This document shows, piece after piece, positions 233 to 35,518 of a stretch of DNA of 64,000 nucleotides. This stretch comes from a virus (lineage: Duplodnaviria > Caudoviricetes): IMG/VR virus record IMGVR_UViG_3300050821_003357, positions 1,306 to 65,305 of that record; one strand, given 5' to 3'. The notes beneath the pieces are model-generated. The model did no database searches. It saw only the letters and a program-made list of their open reading frames with translations, and was not told the origin of the DNA. Position 1 is the stretch's first letter; each line of letters starts with the position of its first letter. A program made the translations under genes and the position numbers.

Positions 233-1728
233 GCGCGCTTCCAATAGCGATTACTGAGCCACGCGAACTGCGAGATTATCAACTGGAGGCGATTGATCTG
301 CTGAGGGGAAGCTTACGATCCGGCCACCGAAGGCCAGTGCTGCAGGCGCCTACGGCTTTCGGCAAGACGGTATTGGCGTCGCATGTCGTGCGAATGGCAA
401 TGGAGAAGGGCAACCGCATCGTATTTACGGTGCCGGCGATTAGTCTTATCGATCAGACGCTAGAGAGTTTCTGGCGCGATGGGGTGGCGGATGTCGGGGT
501 AATCCAGTCCGACCATCCGGAGACGGACTGGAGTCGTCCGGTGCAGGTCGCCAGTGTGCAGACCCTGGCAAGGCGAGGGTATCCAAAGGCCAATCTGGTT
601 ATCGTGGATGAGTGCCATAGGCAATTCGAGACGATCAACAAATGGCTCCATCATTCTGACTGGCAGCGAGTGCCCTTTATTGGCCTGAGCGCGACTCCTT
701 GGAGTCAGGGGCTGGGCAACCACTATGACGATCTTATTATTTCGCAGACGACACAACAGCTCATCGACGCGGGGTATCTCTCTCGCTACCGGGTGTTTGC
801 ACCATCTCACCCGGACCTGTCGGGCGTGCAGATCCAGCGGGGCGACTACGTCGAATCGCAACTGTCGGACGTGATGTCCAAGGCTGGTTTGGTGGCTGAC
901 GTGGTGGAAACGTGGATTCGCAATGGGGAGAACAGGCCGACGCTGTGCTTTGCGGTCGACTGCGCCCACGCCAAACACTTACAGCAGCGATTCGCGCAGT
1001 CAGGGATCGACTGCGGGTATCAGGATGCTTTCACGGAGGCAAAGGAGCGGGCCGAGATCAAGCGTGATTTCCACAGCGGTCGGTTGAAGGTCGTATGCAA
1101 CGTGGGCACGCTGACCACGGGAGTCGATTGGGACGTGCGGTGCATCATCTTGGCCCGGCCGACACGATCGGAGATCCTTTATGTGCAGATCATTGGCAGG
1201 GGCTTACGAACGGCTGATGGCAAAGCTGATTGCCTGATCCTCGATCACTCTGATTCCACGCAACGGCTGGGATTTGTCACGGACATTTGCCACGATCATC
1301 TCCCGATGGGAAAGGAACGGCCACCGGAAAAGCGCATCGAGGCGCTTCCGAAGGAATGTCCAAGCTGTACGTATTTGATGCCGCCTCGGGTTATGCAGTG
1401 TCCAGCATGCGGCCATACGAGAAAGCCGCCGGTATCTCAGGTGGCGACGAAGCCCGGTGAACTGGTTGAGGTCCGGGGGTTCCAGAAGCAGCGCCAGAAG
1501 GACAAGACGATAGAGCTGAGAGGTCGGTCGATCCCGCTGGCGCAGTTCGCTGGTGAGCTGATGAGCTATGCCAGATTACATGGCTATAAGGCCGGGTGGG
1601 CGGCTCACAAGTACCGGGAGGCGGTAGGCGATTGGCCAAGCAGAGGTGTGCCTGAGATACCGGCGAGCATGGAGGTGATATCGTGGATCAAGAGCCGGGC
1701 TATCGCGTGGGCCAAGGCCAGGCACTAG
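229..1728 (+). CDS. superfamily 2 (DEAD/DEAH-like) DNA helicase with C-terminal Zn ribbon
   Basis: Motifs APTAFGKT, DECH, GLSATP, QIIGRGLR; CPSC..CPAC. Confidence 0.93.
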   Translation: MSALPIAITEPRELRDYQLEAIDLLRGSLRSGHRRPVLQAPTAFGKTVLASHVVRMAMEKGNRIVFTVPAISLIDQTLESFWRDGVADVGVIQSDHPETDWSRPVQVASVQTLARRGYPKANLVIVDECHRQFETINKWLHHSDWQRVPFIGLSATPWSQGLGNHYDDLIISQTTQQLIDAGYLSRYRVFAPSHPDLSGVQIQRGDYVESQLSDVMSKAGLVADVVETWIRNGENRPTLCFAVDCAHAKHLQQRFAQSGIDCGYQDAFTEAKERAEIKRDFHSGRLKVVCNVGTLTTGVDWDVRCIILARPTRSEILYVQIIGRGLRTADGKADCLILDHSDSTQRLGFVTDICHDHLPMGKERPPEKRIEALPKECPSCTYLMPPRVMQCPACGHTRKPPVSQVATKPGELVEVRGFQKQRQKDKTIELRGRSIPLAQFAGELMSYARLHGYKAGWAAHKYREAVGDWPSRGVPEIPASMEVISWIKSRAIAWAKARH

Positions 1729-1747
1729 TCTGTGCGCACATTACCAA

Positions 1748-2067
1748 GTGAGACTCAGTAGACGGTGTGAAGGGGCCAACCTTTTGGCTGCTTACGGTCG
1801 ACTCGGGCAGGCGGGGATCGAACCCGCGCCCCTCCATCTGATGTGCCTCAGCGATAGTACTGAGGCAGCAACTCGACATACTCTGCCACGCGCTTTTCTG
1901 CGGCCTCTCGCGTCGGATAGGTATCGCTTATCCGCTCCGCATACCCGTTGATCAGGCAGTATCCGATCACGGGGTAATCCGGGTATGACCCATGCACTTC
2001 GGTAACGGTCGGGCGATTGATTAGTAACTCGTTCATTTGGCTTCTCCTATGTGTGAGACTCAGTAGA
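1748..2067. repeat. 15-bp direct repeat GTGAGACTCAGTAGA (1748-1762, 2053-2067)
   Basis: Exact copies flanking ORF 1848-2036; contains palindrome TGAG-A-CTCA. Confidence 0.85.
1848..2036 (-). CDS. small hypothetical protein
   Basis: AGGAGA RBS before ATG; last gene of leftward operon. Confidence 0.7.
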   Translation of the reverse strand: MNELLINRPTVTEVHGSYPDYPVIGYCLINGYAERISDTYPTREAAEKRVAEYVELLPQYYR

Positions 2068-2078
2068 GGGTGACGGAC

Positions 2079-2291
2079 TCAGCGACCGCCACCCAACAGG
2101 CGAGTCCAAGTGTTGCTGGTACGCCTTGCCTGCGCCGCTATCAGTTTCCGCTCTTGCGCTGGTGACGGCGGAGAGGCGGTCCAATCGGCTAGAGCCTTAC
2201 GACACAGTGGGAGATCTCCATAGTAGACCGTTTCGCCAGCATCGTTGCGGATCGTGCCGCGATTTCCATAAATATCGAGATGATAGGTCAT
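2079..2291 (-). CDS. small hypothetical protein (start MTYHLDIYG)
   Basis: GGAGGA RBS upstream of ATG 2291. Confidence 0.7.
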   Translation of the reverse strand: MTYHLDIYGNRGTIRNDAGETVYYGDLPLCRKALADWTASPPSPAQERKLIAAQARRTSNTWTRLLGGGR

Positions 2292-2320
2292 TGGTTCCTC
2301 CGTCTCTGATGAAAGTGGGT

Positions 2321-2503
2321 TTAGCGGGATGCGGTCTTTTTCAGATACAGCGTCCACTGGCGAGCAAGCCGCGTAGCAATCGCCCGCGTCCTCGCCACGC
2401 CTGTTTTAAGGTTCTCGGTCGGCTCGCCATACGCGAACGAATAGACGCGCCAGCCGTAGCCTTCTGCCGTCTTCTGCGTATTCCAGCTAATCACTCGGGT
2501 CAT
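2321..2503 (-). CDS. small hypothetical protein
   Basis: AGGAG RBS; 60 aa. Confidence 0.7.
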   Translation of the reverse strand: MTRVISWNTQKTAEGYGWRVYSFAYGEPTENLKTGVARTRAIATRLARQWTLYLKKTASR

Positions 2504-2518
2504 GGGTTTCGCTCCTGC

Positions 2519-2710
2519 TCATCCGTTCGTCAGAAACGCGCGATCCTTGCGGACGCGCCCCTCACTCTCGATCCAGCGACCGCAAATTTCTTCCATGTAG
2601 CTGTACACGTAAGACCCCTTTGTTTCTCTCACCAAAGTGCCGAGCCTTTGGCCGTCCGCCACTGCTGGGGTTGCTCCGTCTGCTAGCGCCTTCCATACGA
2701 TTTCGGTCAT
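2519..2710 (-). CDS. small hypothetical protein (start MTEIVWK)
   Basis: AGGA RBS and ATG lie inside the hammerhead ribozyme. Confidence 0.65.
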   Translation of the reverse strand: MTEIVWKALADGATPAVADGQRLGTLVRETKGSYVYSYMEEICGRWIESEGRVRKDRAFLTNG

Positions 2711-2763
2711 GGGTTTCGTCCTTTTGGAACTCATCGGCGGCAGCACACACTGCCGGACCCTTG
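2708..2763 (-). ncRNA. type III hammerhead ribozyme (U4C core variant)
   Basis: CAAGGGUC^CGGCAG-UGUGUG-CUGCCG-CCGAUGA-GUUC-CAAAA-GGAC-GAAACCCAUG: stems I-III pair, GUC triplet, GAAA core. Confidence 0.85.
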
Positions 2764-2800
2764 CCTGCAGTCCGTATTTCTCGGATCTCGCTCCCGGCCT

Positions 2801-3151
2801 TTACAGGTGCTTCCGGAGATACGCTTGCCAAATCTCTACCTGGGGGCTTTCAAGGTAGCTGATTGCGATATTGCAGCGGTCGCAGAGGAGTTCTCGCACT
2901 TTCATGCTGTTGTGATCGTGATCAACGCATAAGCCACCCTTTTTGTTTGGTGGGCCTCCACAACACGCACATAAGCCGTTTTGGGCGGCTACCATTTGGT
3001 CATAGTCCTCTGCGGTGATGCCGTAGAGTCGCGGCAGATTGTGCTTGCGCTGATTGCCGCGCCGAGCATGTCGAGCGCGCTCTCGTTCGGGGTGGCGCTC
3101 CCGGTCTGCCTTATCCCATGCGTGTTTGGTGTCTAGATCCTTGAAAGCCAT
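2801..3151 (-). CDS. endonuclease VII-like HNH nuclease
   Basis: YGIT..Y..M...Q.G.CACC, LCVDHDH, VRELLCDRCN. Confidence 0.88.
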   Translation of the reverse strand: MAFKDLDTKHAWDKADRERHPERERARHARRGNQRKHNLPRLYGITAEDYDQMVAAQNGLCACCGGPPNKKGGLCVDHDHNSMKVRELLCDRCNIAISYLESPQVEIWQAYLRKHL

Positions 3152-3236
3152 ATCTTGCCTCTTTGCTGGCGTACCGTCTCTCTCGGTCCTCGGTCCGGGC
3201 CTTTAACCGGGCTGGCGTCGTTCTCTTGTGATGAGG

Positions 3237-3265
3237 AATATAGTGGTTCGGTTAAATCGCGTCAA
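3237..3265 (-). promoter_or_regulatory. sigma70-type promoter for leftward operon
   Basis: TTGACG-N17-TATATT on minus strand. Confidence 0.75.
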
Positions 3266-3270
3266 CCCTC

Positions 3271-3301
3271 TTGATAAAATATTTTGTCTCTTCTATATAA
3301 T
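3271..3301 (+). promoter_or_regulatory. divergent sigma70-type promoter
   Basis: TTGATA-N17-TATATA(AT) a few nt before ATG 3307. Confidence 0.55.
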
Positions 3302-3306
3302 TTCGT

Positions 3307-3549
3307 ATGTCGAGGATCACAGACGCTCTCAGAATGGCGCGTTTAGAGGCGCGCATCCCCCAACGCGAGCTTGCCACGATGCTAGGCATATCATCGGCCT
3401 TTTTGAGTAGCATCGAGCAAGCGCGAAACGGCGCACGTTTGCCGCCATACCTTTACGAGAAACTACCCACGGTAATCCGAAATGCGGTCATAGACGCAGC
3501 GATTGTCGAACTGAGGGTCGAAATCGACAAGCTGGAGGCTATGCGATGA
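3307..3549 (+). CDS. XRE-family helix-turn-helix regulator
   Basis: LRMARLEARIPQRELATMLGISSAFLSSIE. Confidence 0.88.
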   Translation: MSRITDALRMARLEARIPQRELATMLGISSAFLSSIEQARNGARLPPYLYEKLPTVIRNAVIDAAIVELRVEIDKLEAMR

Positions 3550-33151: not shown

Positions 33152-35518
33152 ATGGCCGATCCCAACATCCTCGCGCAGATCCTAGCCGGGAATGATCCTC
33201 TTTCGCCGCAAATTGCACAAGGGCTGCAGGGCGCGCAGCTGTCTTCGGACACGATTAACAGCCCTCCTGCGCACGGTCCTTTTGGGGTCCTGGCGAAATA
33301 CCTCGGCGCGTCGCAGGGGCACGACATGCTGAACAACGCCGTGCAGCAGACGACGCAGGCGCGGCTTGGGGCGCAGCCTGATATGGCGAGGTTGATGGCA
33401 TCTCCTAATGCCTATCAGGATCTTGCCACTAAGCCGCAAGATTTCAATCCGATCGCCCGATCAGCATTCCTTAGTGGAGGACCGGAGCAGGCCCAGAAGT
33501 ACCAGCTGGGGCAGCAATTGACGACTGAGGCAGCACTCAAAAATGCCGCCGGAATCGCCGCTTTGCGCGCACAAGCCGCCGCTCTGGGCTTCCCGATGCC
33601 GACGACTCAGGATGTGCGATCTGGGAATTATCAAGGGCCGGACTACACAAGGATGTTCAGCGGCACGCCGGGTGGCCAGGGATCTGGAGCACCTGCAGCG
33701 GGTGGCGGTCCCATATCCGATCCGCGCGGATTGGTCCCGTACATTAGGCTGAGCGCAGTGCAGAATAATATCGACCCGGATGTTGCCGTAAGGGTCGCTT
33801 CCTCCGAAGGATTGGCCGCTCCGGCCGGAGCCAGCGGTGACGGGGGCACATCAGGCAACGCCTTTCAGCTCCATGTCACGCCAGGGGGCAAAGGTAGCGC
33901 GGTAGGCGATCTATTTAGGGAGCAGACCGGACTCGATCCGCTTGACCCGGCCAATGAAAAGGCCACGATTGATTTCGCATTGCACCACGCGGCAAAAAAT
34001 GGCTGGGGCGCATGGACCGGGGCCGCAAAGGCCGGCATCGCTCCATTCCAAGGCATCACTCCAGCCGGTCGGCCCATGCAAGTGGCTCAGGCCGGCGGCG
34101 GGACCGCTACGGATGCATCTGTAGGTGGGCCGTCCCTGGCGGGTGGCGCCCCGCCCAGCGCGGCAATGTCGCCCGCCGAGGCGTTTAGGATGCGTGCGCA
34201 ATTGCAAGCCCTAGGCATGCCGATTCCGCAGGCTGCCAATGATTATCTAGCGGCTCAAATGATGCCGCCGGGTCCGGCTCGCGATCTTGCCTTGGCACAG
34301 GCAATGAAGAGCGGCGGGCTGGACGCGATTCAGAATATCCGGGCGAACGGTACTCTCTTGGGTCTTGATCCGAACCATCCCCTCGGTCCTCCAAAGGTAC
34401 TCTATCATGCGCCGAGTTTGGCGGGGGGGCAGACAGTCAGTCAGCCTGTGCCGGGTGGCCCATTGTCGGCAGTAGATGTGCCTGGCGCAATGCAAGGTTT
34501 TGAGACTGAGGAGGCTTCGAAAGCGCGGGGTGGCGGCCAATACAAACCGGAAACCTATTACGACAAGTTTGGCAACCCGGTGCAGGGCACCGCTGCGCAA
34601 GCCCCGCAGTTTGCGAATCCGGCCCCTAGCGGGGCTCCTCCGCAAGCTGCGCCAGCCGGGCCACCCGGAACGTTATCCGTTGGCGGGGCGATACCCAGTG
34701 GCATGCCCGCGCCACCTCCACTCGCGCCAAAGCAAAGCCCATATGGCGCTGCCCCGACCTTTCTGGCGAATACGCCAACTGGGCAAAAGGATATTTCGCA
34801 GGTTCATGTCAACGATATGTTTCCGGGGGGTGCCGGTATACCCCAACCGGGCGGCCCGGCTGGACCGCCGACCGAATTGCAGAAAGAGATTCAGAAAACC
34901 GATGCAGATCGGCTGTCGGGATATAACAAAGAACAGGGCGCAAATCAGCAGATCAATCAGGATTTGTTGAGGCTGCATGGCGTTCTAGAGCGCGGCTTTT
35001 CGACAAGCAATGTCGCGCGCATCGGAGCGGATCTAGCGAATACTGCGCACGGCTTGGGGGCCGATTGGGCATATCCTGCCGGATGGGCGCCTGCAAGCGC
35101 TGCGGAATTCGATAAAGCCTCGACAGATCTGGTGTTTGCTGCGCTCAAGACCTTGCCGGGCCAGCCTCGTGTTACCGAGATAACGGGTTTGCAAAAGGCT
35201 AACCCAAATATTGTGATCCCGCGTGAGACCAACTATCAGATGATGAATGATATTCTGGCTAGATCTAAGTGGCAGGATGAGAGAGCGAGACTAGCAACAG
35301 AATTTACGGTCGAGCACAAAGGCGTTCCGCTATCGCTATTTGATAGCGCTTACAATCGCATGGCACCATTGCCTGACGTGGCGAATGAATACATGGGCGT
35401 GCTACGTCAGCATGGAGCGGTGTTTCCGGAGGATGTGAAGGCCGGAGGAGGCCCGGCTGCGCCTCCGGCACGGCGCTCGCGGTTCAATCCGGCGACGGGC
35501 AAGATCGAGCCGATGTAA
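33152..35518 (+). CDS. DNA ejection protein with lysozyme-like domain
   Basis: IDPDVAVRVASSEG, GDGGTSGNAFQL, NGWGAW. Confidence 0.72.
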   Translation: MADPNILAQILAGNDPLSPQIAQGLQGAQLSSDTINSPPAHGPFGVLAKYLGASQGHDMLNNAVQQTTQARLGAQPDMARLMASPNAYQDLATKPQDFNPIARSAFLSGGPEQAQKYQLGQQLTTEAALKNAAGIAALRAQAAALGFPMPTTQDVRSGNYQGPDYTRMFSGTPGGQGSGAPAAGGGPISDPRGLVPYIRLSAVQNNIDPDVAVRVASSEGLAAPAGASGDGGTSGNAFQLHVTPGGKGSAVGDLFREQTGLDPLDPANEKATIDFALHHAAKNGWGAWTGAAKAGIAPFQGITPAGRPMQVAQAGGGTATDASVGGPSLAGGAPPSAAMSPAEAFRMRAQLQALGMPIPQAANDYLAAQMMPPGPARDLALAQAMKSGGLDAIQNIRANGTLLGLDPNHPLGPPKVLYHAPSLAGGQTVSQPVPGGPLSAVDVPGAMQGFETEEASKARGGGQYKPETYYDKFGNPVQGTAAQAPQFANPAPSGAPPQAAPAGPPGTLSVGGAIPSGMPAPPPLAPKQSPYGAAPTFLANTPTGQKDISQVHVNDMFPGGAGIPQPGGPAGPPTELQKEIQKTDADRLSGYNKEQGANQQINQDLLRLHGVLERGFSTSNVARIGADLANTAHGLGADWAYPAGWAPASAAEFDKASTDLVFAALKTLPGQPRVTEITGLQKANPNIVIPRETNYQMMNDILARSKWQDERARLATEFTVEHKGVPLSLFDSAYNRMAPLPDVANEYMGVLRQHGAVFPEDVKAGGGPAAPPARRSRFNPATGKIEPM

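Follow-up and report, generated by a model that had tools for sequence, protein, structure and literature searches.

Near one end of a 64,000-nucleotide (nt) stretch of soil phage DNA, hereafter called the window, a series of small genes follows a type III hammerhead ribozyme, here named HH1, that carries the ribosome-binding sequence of the next gene in one of its stems and abuts the start codon of that gene with another. The window (IMG/VR record IMGVR_UViG_3300050821_003357; Duplodnaviria, Caudoviricetes) is the 65,305-base virus record without its first 1,305 bases, and the record is rated complete by CheckV. The minus strand carries every gene from 3151 down to about 1848. In what is presumably a single transcribed early operon, a promoter-like site is followed by a gene for endonuclease VII, HH1, a 63-codon open reading frame (ORF63), a decayed second hammerhead (HH2), ORF60, and further small ORFs (Table 1).

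The sequence from 2763 to 2708 on the minus strand can be drawn as a complete type III hammerhead fold whose ribozyme elements all fall within 2760-2711. It is a three-way junction in which loops close stems I and II and stem III is open. Stem III is formed by four pairs between GGGU (2760-2757) and ACCC (2714-2711), and stem II likewise has four pairs only, one of which is a wobble. The core includes C3, G5, A6, G8, A9, G12, A13, A14, the A15.1-U16.1 and G10.1-C11.1 pairs, and a nucleotide other than G (here C) at position 17. The consensus U at core position 4 (CUGANGA) is replaced by C at 2736, and all remaining core positions, the 14 pairs, and both loops are intact, being either identical to or compensated against those of canonical relatives. 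An earlier sequence-only reading of the region had described a complete type III fold with a GUC triplet cut between 2756 and 2755 and a CCGAUGA core in place of CUGAUGA. The sequence, the Rfam alignment, and the model R1 described below all agree with that description, including its coordinates and the U4C change. The same reading had placed a Shine-Dalgarno sequence at loop II and stem II, and indeed AAGGA (2723-2719) begins in loop II and runs into the 3' strand of stem II, leaving 8 nt to the AUG (2710-2708). It had also let the AUG extend stem III. The AUG abuts the helix, and U2709 and G2708 can lengthen it (with A2762 and C2763) across a single A-A mismatch.

Table 1. Features of the hammerhead locus and its surroundings, in window coordinates
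Feature	Position	Strand	Basis or remark
Divergent helix-turn-helix regulator gene, 80 amino acids	3307..3549	+	Weak HTH_31 and HTH_3 matches, below Pfam cut-offs
Candidate sigma-70-like promoter, TTGACG-17 nt-TATATT	3237..3265	-	Consensus matches only, 10 of 12; upstream of the minus-strand operon
Endonuclease VII gene, 116 amino acids, first gene of the operon, upstream of HH1	2801..3151	-	Pfam PF02945, 7.1e-17; phrog_2914, 7.5e-26
Predicted competitor hairpin, 6 pairs, -8.7 kcal/mol	2754..2774	-	Would tie up the cleavage site together with the stem III 5' strand before it and the first two stem I bases after it
Type III hammerhead HH1, whole Rfam match (ribozyme proper, 2760-2711)	2708..2763	-	Rfam, 35.6 bits; purpose-built model R1, 52.0 bits, E 1.2e-8
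Predicted cleavage site, GUC	2755..2756	-	3' of C17 (2756); the 3' product would begin with C2755
Stem I hairpin, 6 Watson-Crick pairs (2755-2750 with 2743-2738)	2738..2755	-	Loop UGUGUG at 2749-2744, identical in L087 and L088; stem covaries
Core CCGAUGA	2731..2737	-	Position 4 (2736) is C in place of U (U4C)
Stem II hairpin, GUUC-CAAAA-GGAC	2718..2730	-	GUUC (2730-2727) with GGAC (2721-2718); all 13 nt identical in L087 and L088
Core GAA (2717-2715), A15.1, and 3' strand of stem III	2711..2717	-	Read from the sequence; Rfam alignment
ORF63, 63 codons	2519..2710	-	Gene call; AUG (2710-2708) directly after stem III of HH1
Decayed second hammerhead HH2	2504..2546	-	R1, 14.5 bits, E 0.38; alignment with intact hammerheads of L081, L010, and L024
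ORF60	2321..2503	-	Gene call; AUG directly after HH2

Database models and descriptors made for this purpose both single out the site. The Rfam model RF00008 (Hammerhead_3) aligns over its full length (model positions 1-54 of 54), with E-values of 6.7e-6 when 701 nt are searched with all families, 6.2e-4 when the whole window is searched with all 4,227 families, and 1.4e-7 when the 65,305-nt virus record is searched with the single family. A separate descriptor that specifies the stems, the core, the GAAA, and the U-H finds one site in the window, which is HH1, and has no match in any of 300 Markov shuffles. Folding 2775-2700 to minimum free energy gives the same three-way junction at an ordinary energy (z -0.21), and an unremarkable fold energy is usual for so small a motif. 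Model R1 was built from 40 hammerheads (37 distinct viral sequences and three from metagenomes) with HH1 excluded, and its score for HH1 (Table 1) was obtained over the whole window with filters off. The training sequences themselves receive 45.2-66.9 bits, versus 18.6-26.4 bits for ill-formed pattern matches (60 of 83 loci were covered). Because HH1 falls inside the training range and has relatives with compensated stems, it is, on these comparative grounds, a homologue of bona fide type III hammerheads of a phage subfamily, with U4C as a natural core variant.

These relatives, numbered as loci with the prefix L, were gathered with two kinds of pattern on viral contigs. The first scan demanded the stem III of HH1 with either U or C at position 4 and returned 60 loci, 52 of which (37 distinct sequences) were well formed, defined as having at least four contiguous stem I pairs and at least two stem II pairs. 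The second was keyed on stem II of HH1 with stem III left free and returned six loci, four of them with full hammerheads. In L087 and L088, loop I and the 13-nt stem-loop II agree with HH1 letter for letter and the core is the canonical CUGAUGA, whereas nearly all positions of stems I and III have changed with the pairing fully compensated. The constancy of loops I and II in these three sequences while the stems vary fits a possible conserved tertiary contact between the loops. A seven-row alignment of the subfamily has 95.9% of its cells paired and eight pairs changed on both sides, values that none of 500 shuffles reached, and most of its unpaired cells come from the L084 row, which is misaligned in stem I. 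A 41-row alignment reaches 96.5% paired cells and a covariation score of 0.642 versus 0.130. The counts from both alignments must be discounted in part. The core, stem III, and the 10.1-11.1 pair were set by the search patterns, and rows were admitted only after filtering on their first two stems, so that some of the covariation there is built in. What can fairly be relied on is that a high proportion of pattern matches have good stems and that stem III changes in the second scan.

Other routes to relatives yielded less. A narrower initial pattern matched nothing on viral contigs. ORF63 led to one viral locus, L002 (83% identity over residues 12-41), whose contig ends inside the ORF before the hammerhead region, and to none among metagenome contigs. 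Endonuclease VII led to four loci in which no hammerhead appeared at E-values up to 1. Cultured phages gave no DNA match, and the terminase is less than 60% identical to any record. Among sequencing runs, none of RNA was found for 2300-3300, and the four of DNA consist of contigs, of which those in X1 and X2 are identical to the window across HH1 and therefore add no variation. The sole pattern match among genome contigs, L067, lies inside a coding region without an Rfam match and was set aside as chance.

Some of the matches form side groups of their own. Additional R1 matches stand a few hundred bases from the main hammerhead in L037 (77-118, 39.9 bits), L064 (767-819, 28.6 bits), and L066 (84-126, 21.5 bits), which fits the known clustering of such elements. 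Four viral contigs (L115, L118, L131, and L137) share a conserved hammerhead-like sequence whose core is CUGGUGA (A6G) and whose stem I begins two bases late, representing either a decayed family or an unusual variant. Four short metagenome contigs (L070, L071, L078, and L079) contain a well-formed type III family followed immediately by an ATG and a run of G residues, and since the ORF there has 18-47 codons, this ATG may not be a start.

The placement of a start codon directly against the ribozyme is uncommon in the viral sample at large. Among the 60 loci, which were not chosen for this property, an ATG follows stem III at +0 or +1 in five (L010, L019, L022, L024, and L058), and in most of the others the next ORF begins 9-40 nt beyond the ribozyme with its own Shine-Dalgarno sequence. 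The association with stem II was counted over 43 distinct well-formed hammerheads by scoring whether an ORF of 40 codons or more starts with ATG at +0 or +1 and whether stem II contains GGAG, AGGA, or GAGG. Such a Shine-Dalgarno core is present in seven of the nine hammerheads with an abutting ORF versus three of the 34 others (Fisher p 1.2e-4), and the viral sequences taken separately give 4/4 versus 3/33 (p 5e-4). The two exceptions among the nine belong to one family whose 45-47-codon ORF is perhaps not a gene, and two further cases, L084 and L089, have the ATG at +1. Judged from sequence, the compact combination of ribozyme and start site is a recurring and coherent design. L087 and L088 have an AAGGA-bearing stem II identical to that of HH1 and no abutting AUG, which indicates that this sequence was there for the ribozyme first and was later co-opted as a ribosome site. 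A search of the open-access literature found no paper on a natural hammerhead with a Shine-Dalgarno sequence in stem II.

What can become of such an element is illustrated about 200 nt downstream. A relaxed descriptor finds a single further site in the window, on the same strand and ending at the start codon of ORF60 (0.25 matches are found per shuffled strand). This site, HH2, retains letter for letter, from GAUGAG to the AUG, the 3' half of intact hammerheads in L010, L024, and the second copy of L081. The retained half comprises the core GAUGA, the stem II GC-AGGA-GC, and GAAACCC, and ORF60 has its ribosome site there. Stem I has lost its 3' strand, stem III has A for G and hence an A-C mismatch, the core reads CGGAUGA with G at position 4, and the 5' part now lies inside the end of ORF63. 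An alternative reading, in which HH2 is active and its stem I is 87 nt long (2617-2504), was rejected, since the alignment reveals a decayed short stem I and R1 gives it a low score, and it is also countered by the G at position 4, for which none of three natural matches has well-formed stems. The identity of the 3' half with L010 and L024 was dropped as strong evidence because it is mostly fixed by the search pattern, and the wider alignment was used in its place.

Locus L081 carries on its minus strand two canonical type III hammerheads (903-852, called L081a, and 648-604) that flank a 61-codon ORF, each with an AUG abutting its stem III. The order is hammerhead, 61-codon ORF, hammerhead, 41-codon ORF, and the two types of stem II occur in the order of HH1 and HH2. 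This layout is presumed to be the ancestral one. The L081 hammerhead with the HH1 type of stem II follows a divergent HTH_3 gene, placed as the regulator gene is in the window, and a leader without an upstream gene on the same strand. In L077, a promoter-like TTGACG-17 nt-TAATAT lies about 105 nt before the hammerhead, and again no same-strand gene is found upstream. Thus, separating the small genes from the endonuclease message, a role put forward in the sequence-only reading, is not the job that has been conserved. Trimming a leader to a fixed 5' end would fit all three loci (the window, L081, and L077), and the endonuclease VII gene may have been inserted into a leader of this kind later.

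Several fragments bear on how these small genes are arranged. In run X3, from another soil metagenome, a 151-nt contig (record 10) joins an HH2-type 3' half, with one letter between, to the start of ORF63. It aligns with the window at 2506-2524 and 2685-2712, the 97 nt upstream are unrelated to the window, and no hammerhead 5' half precedes the ORF63 start. On a second X3 contig the end of ORF63 exits through the same junction into a different downstream gene (each case is a single contig at a depth of about 3). The shared 3' half of the hammerhead may serve as a joint for the exchange of small early genes. In L077, the 62-codon ORF behind the U4C hammerhead (651-839, plus strand) matches the Pfam family Phage_ProQ_C_like (PF24203; 5e-7, 30.8 bits), and directly after its stop codon and before the next ATG stand the motif GCGAAACCC and a Shine-Dalgarno sequence, which may be another hammerhead relic.

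With moderate confidence, HH1 is proposed to self-cleave, probably more slowly than hammerheads with the canonical core, so as to give the small genes a defined and insulated 5' end. The fold, homology, covariation, gene layout, and association between a Shine-Dalgarno core in stem II and an AUG against stem III are observed. That the region is transcribed and cut in cells, what happens to the two products, and whether translation is affected are inferred. HH1 would fold during transcription and cut between C2756 and C2755 at a rate lowered by U4C. The message for endonuclease VII upstream would then end in a 2',3'-cyclic phosphate, and the downstream message would start with a 5'-hydroxyl on C2755, paired in the stem I hairpin and 45 nt before the AUG. 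The four-pair stem III, worth -6.4 kcal/mol when taken as a duplex, would dissociate and free the AUG region, while AAGGA would remain in a weak four-pair stem II that the ribosome could open. The net effect would be a small-gene message with a fixed, insulated 5' end regardless of what lies upstream. If HH1 is active, uncoupling of the endonuclease VII and small-ORF messages would follow from established chemistry.

A number of results weigh against an active HH1, among them those of nearest-neighbor folding, which leaves out tertiary contacts. Just after synthesis the hammerhead fold lies 0.1-2.3 kcal/mol above the optimum. After about 90 nt or more of downstream sequence has been added (transcript end at 2650 or 2600), the gap widens to 5.5-7.1 kcal/mol, and a shorter 5' context already gives 6.0-8.0 kcal/mol for transcripts ending at 2680-2670. 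A hairpin predicted immediately upstream (Table 1), together with downstream pairings, is expected to overtake the hammerhead later. The Hammerhead_3 scan that the sequence-only reading had named as a check gave the full-length match described above, but its 35.6 bits fall below the Rfam gathering score of 48.5, so a default Rfam scan of the window is blank. When 11 loci with other well-formed hammerheads are scored with RF00008, only L087 exceeds the cut-off (51.3 bits). L088 (47.2), L089 (39.6), L081a (38.4), and L049 (32.4) fall short, and the other seven hammerheads are not listed at an E-value of 0.01. Low scores across the relatives imply that the Rfam cut-off misses most of this phage group.

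The altered core presents another difficulty. Core position 4 belongs to the CUGA U-turn. Deep mutational scanning of a type III hammerhead found low activity when one or two letters of the CUGA turn were changed, with the exception of a C-G pair swap (PMC9901934). Another paper states that U4C in a viroid "considerably decreases activity in vitro," yet adds that infectivity was supported in vivo (PMC3088659, citing Ambros and Flores 1998). In viral contigs searched with the same frame, well-formed hammerheads make up 49 of 56 loci with U4 and three of four with C4 (L047, L049, and L054), and the corresponding fractions are 0/1 for A4, 0/3 for G4, 0/4 for A6G, and 0/3 for G5A plus A6G. No locus in that scan has G5A alone. 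Among changes at core positions 4-6, C4 is therefore the only one encountered in well-formed phage hammerheads (3/4 loci versus 0/11 for the others). A metagenome scan added a fourth well-formed C4 copy, L077, in which the stem II helix and the abutting AUG are as in HH1. That copy is the only well-formed one of eight C4 matches in the scan, which again tells against the variant, and the seven ill-formed matches represent chance, four of them being one repeated sequence. The C4 core string was not found in the supplements of PMC3088659, where gaps in the alignments or the format of the files could mask it. On balance, C4 seems to be a natural variant that is tolerated, if probably slower, and not a sign of decay, although the numbers are small.

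In a rival account, which is rather unlikely, U4C has disabled the ribozyme. HH1 would then be an inactive or nearly inactive relic whose ribosome-binding cassette (the Shine-Dalgarno sequence in stem II, the 8-nt spacer, and the AUG) is kept by selection, perhaps along with a passive stem I hairpin. The main argument for it is HH2, which is exactly such a relic, with its 3' half used as a ribosome site and its 5' half decayed, which means that catalysis is dispensable at such a site and that HH1 could follow the same path. The X3 contig, in which ORF63 starts behind an HH2-type junction without a hammerhead 5' half, and the low in vitro activity described for U-turn mutants (PMC9901934; PMC3088659) point the same way. 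Against this stands the preservation of everything in HH1 other than position 4, each element being identical or compensated relative to canonical relatives. The exclusive occurrence of C4 among the altered cores of well-formed phage hammerheads, and the viroid U4C variant described as functional in vivo (PMC3088659), also argue for retained function. The view that HH1 is an ordinary ribosome-site junction that merely looks like a hammerhead is so improbable that it barely enters the balance. The score under the Rfam cut-off, the ordinary fold energy, and the resemblance of the 3' half of HH1 to a junction motif repeated in the operon could be cited for it, but it is contradicted by the absence of matches in shuffled sequences, by the E-value from the independent model R1, and by the identity of the loops and stem II with those of L087 and L088, where the stems are compensated.

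The remaining account, which is quite unlikely, makes HH1 a kinetic gate on translation. The uncut fold would hide the GGA of the Shine-Dalgarno sequence and the AUG, ribosome binding and folding would exclude each other, cleavage would dissolve stem III and switch ORF63 on, and U4C would set the timing. That Shine-Dalgarno cores in stem II go with abutting AUGs speaks for it, as does the recurrence of the architecture in L010, L019, L022, L024, L077, L081 (twice), L084, and L089. Self-cleavage is required for translation initiation in some eukaryotic RNA viruses (PMC13725137), which offers an analogy only. Secondary-structure models, however, give no support to gating, which the sequence-only reading had suggested. 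Opening the ribosome site costs 6.2-6.6 kcal/mol in precursor and product alike, and the unpaired probabilities are also the same in both (0.42-0.48 for the Shine-Dalgarno sequence and 0.13-0.15 for the AUG). Because the models leave out tertiary contacts, this outcome is taken as lack of support and not as refutation. In addition, stem II has just four pairs including the wobble, L081a combines this layout with a core that is canonical and fast, which implies that slow cutting is not part of the design, and HH2 acts as a ribosome site without a ribozyme. An extension to a subfamily of phage type III hammerheads is unlikely as well. It would regard the subfamily as a self-contained cassette of ribozyme plus start site, with the Shine-Dalgarno sequence in stem II and the AUG against stem III, in which folding and 30S binding exclude each other, cleavage licenses translation, variants like U4C tune the delay, and the shared 3' half is a gene-swap joint that leaves relics like HH2. 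Cleavage by HH1 to trim and insulate the small-gene message is the favored reading, at the confidence given above.

Other observations concern the surroundings of the operon. The candidate promoter is the sole promoter-like site within 1600-3500, where the shuffle mean is 1.0. Neither Pfam nor PHROG has a family that matches ORF63, ORF60, or two further small ORFs. In run X4, from a fourth soil metagenome, the endonuclease VII region corresponding to window positions 2944-3242 is about 90% alike (29 differences and four gaps over 299 nt), and the contig ends before the hammerhead. Far away, at 34029-34107 on the minus strand, a weak match to the Pseudomonas small RNA P26 (26.4 bits against a cut-off of 36, E 0.27) is probably due to chance.

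Hammerhead devices have been engineered in bacteria as insulators before the ribosome site and as switches that hide the Shine-Dalgarno sequence in a ribozyme stem. On paper HH1 is like them, since cleavage would leave a context-independent 5' end and the ribosome site lies within the ribozyme helices. It is unlike them in being natural, in having no ligand-sensing domain, and in where the Shine-Dalgarno sequence sits, which is stem II here and an extended stem I or III in the devices. Among natural systems, close parallels are in phages and prophages, where two reports describe hammerheads, known since 2011, that flank small non-conserved ORFs (single genes or short gene blocks), are often clustered, and cleave in vitro, and in which their role is called open (Perreault et al. 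2011, PMC3088659; de la Pena et al. 2017, PMC6155905). Shared with that description are the phage genome, the position between small same-strand ORFs that belong to no known family, and an element derived from a second hammerhead where the next gene starts. In the window, by contrast, only one of the two copies is intact, its core carries U4C, and the ribozyme itself contains or touches the ribosome site and AUG, which in the described cases come after it.

The HHphage element of haloviruses HF1 and HF2 (PMC3088659) is likewise a hammerhead with a variant core before an early gene. An early polycistronic transcript has it directly before its first ORF, with 13 nt left to the start codon, and the 5' end that was mapped falls within 3 nt of the cleavage site. 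It differs from HH1 in its two-base core insertion, its very high Mg2+ requirement, and its archaeal host. The viroid hammerhead with U4C has the same core substitution but functions in rolling-circle replication of viroid RNA and not in a messenger RNA leader (PMC3088659). For the overlap with a ribosome site, the nearest published natural analogy is ribozyme-dependent translation initiation in fungal and plant RNA viruses (Lopez-Galiano et al. 2026; PMC13725137). These resemble HH1 in having a self-cleaving motif immediately upstream of a viral ORF, with cleavage linked there to translation, and they differ in that translation is eukaryotic and cap-independent, the hammerheads are mostly type I, and the genomes are RNA.

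HH1 therefore belongs to the phage hammerhead kind known since 2011, in an uncommon but recurring arrangement with a start site. The locus adds no new kind of RNA; with its relatives it offers a compact natural test case, since the ribozyme physically includes the ribosome site. The recurrence of U4C, without other variants at positions 4-6 in well-formed copies, also suggests that selection keeps slowed cores. A single operon holds an intact copy, probably with a slowed core, beside a decayed one, and the relative L081 has both copies intact. These few sequences could distinguish whether phage hammerheads merely trim messages or also time their translation.

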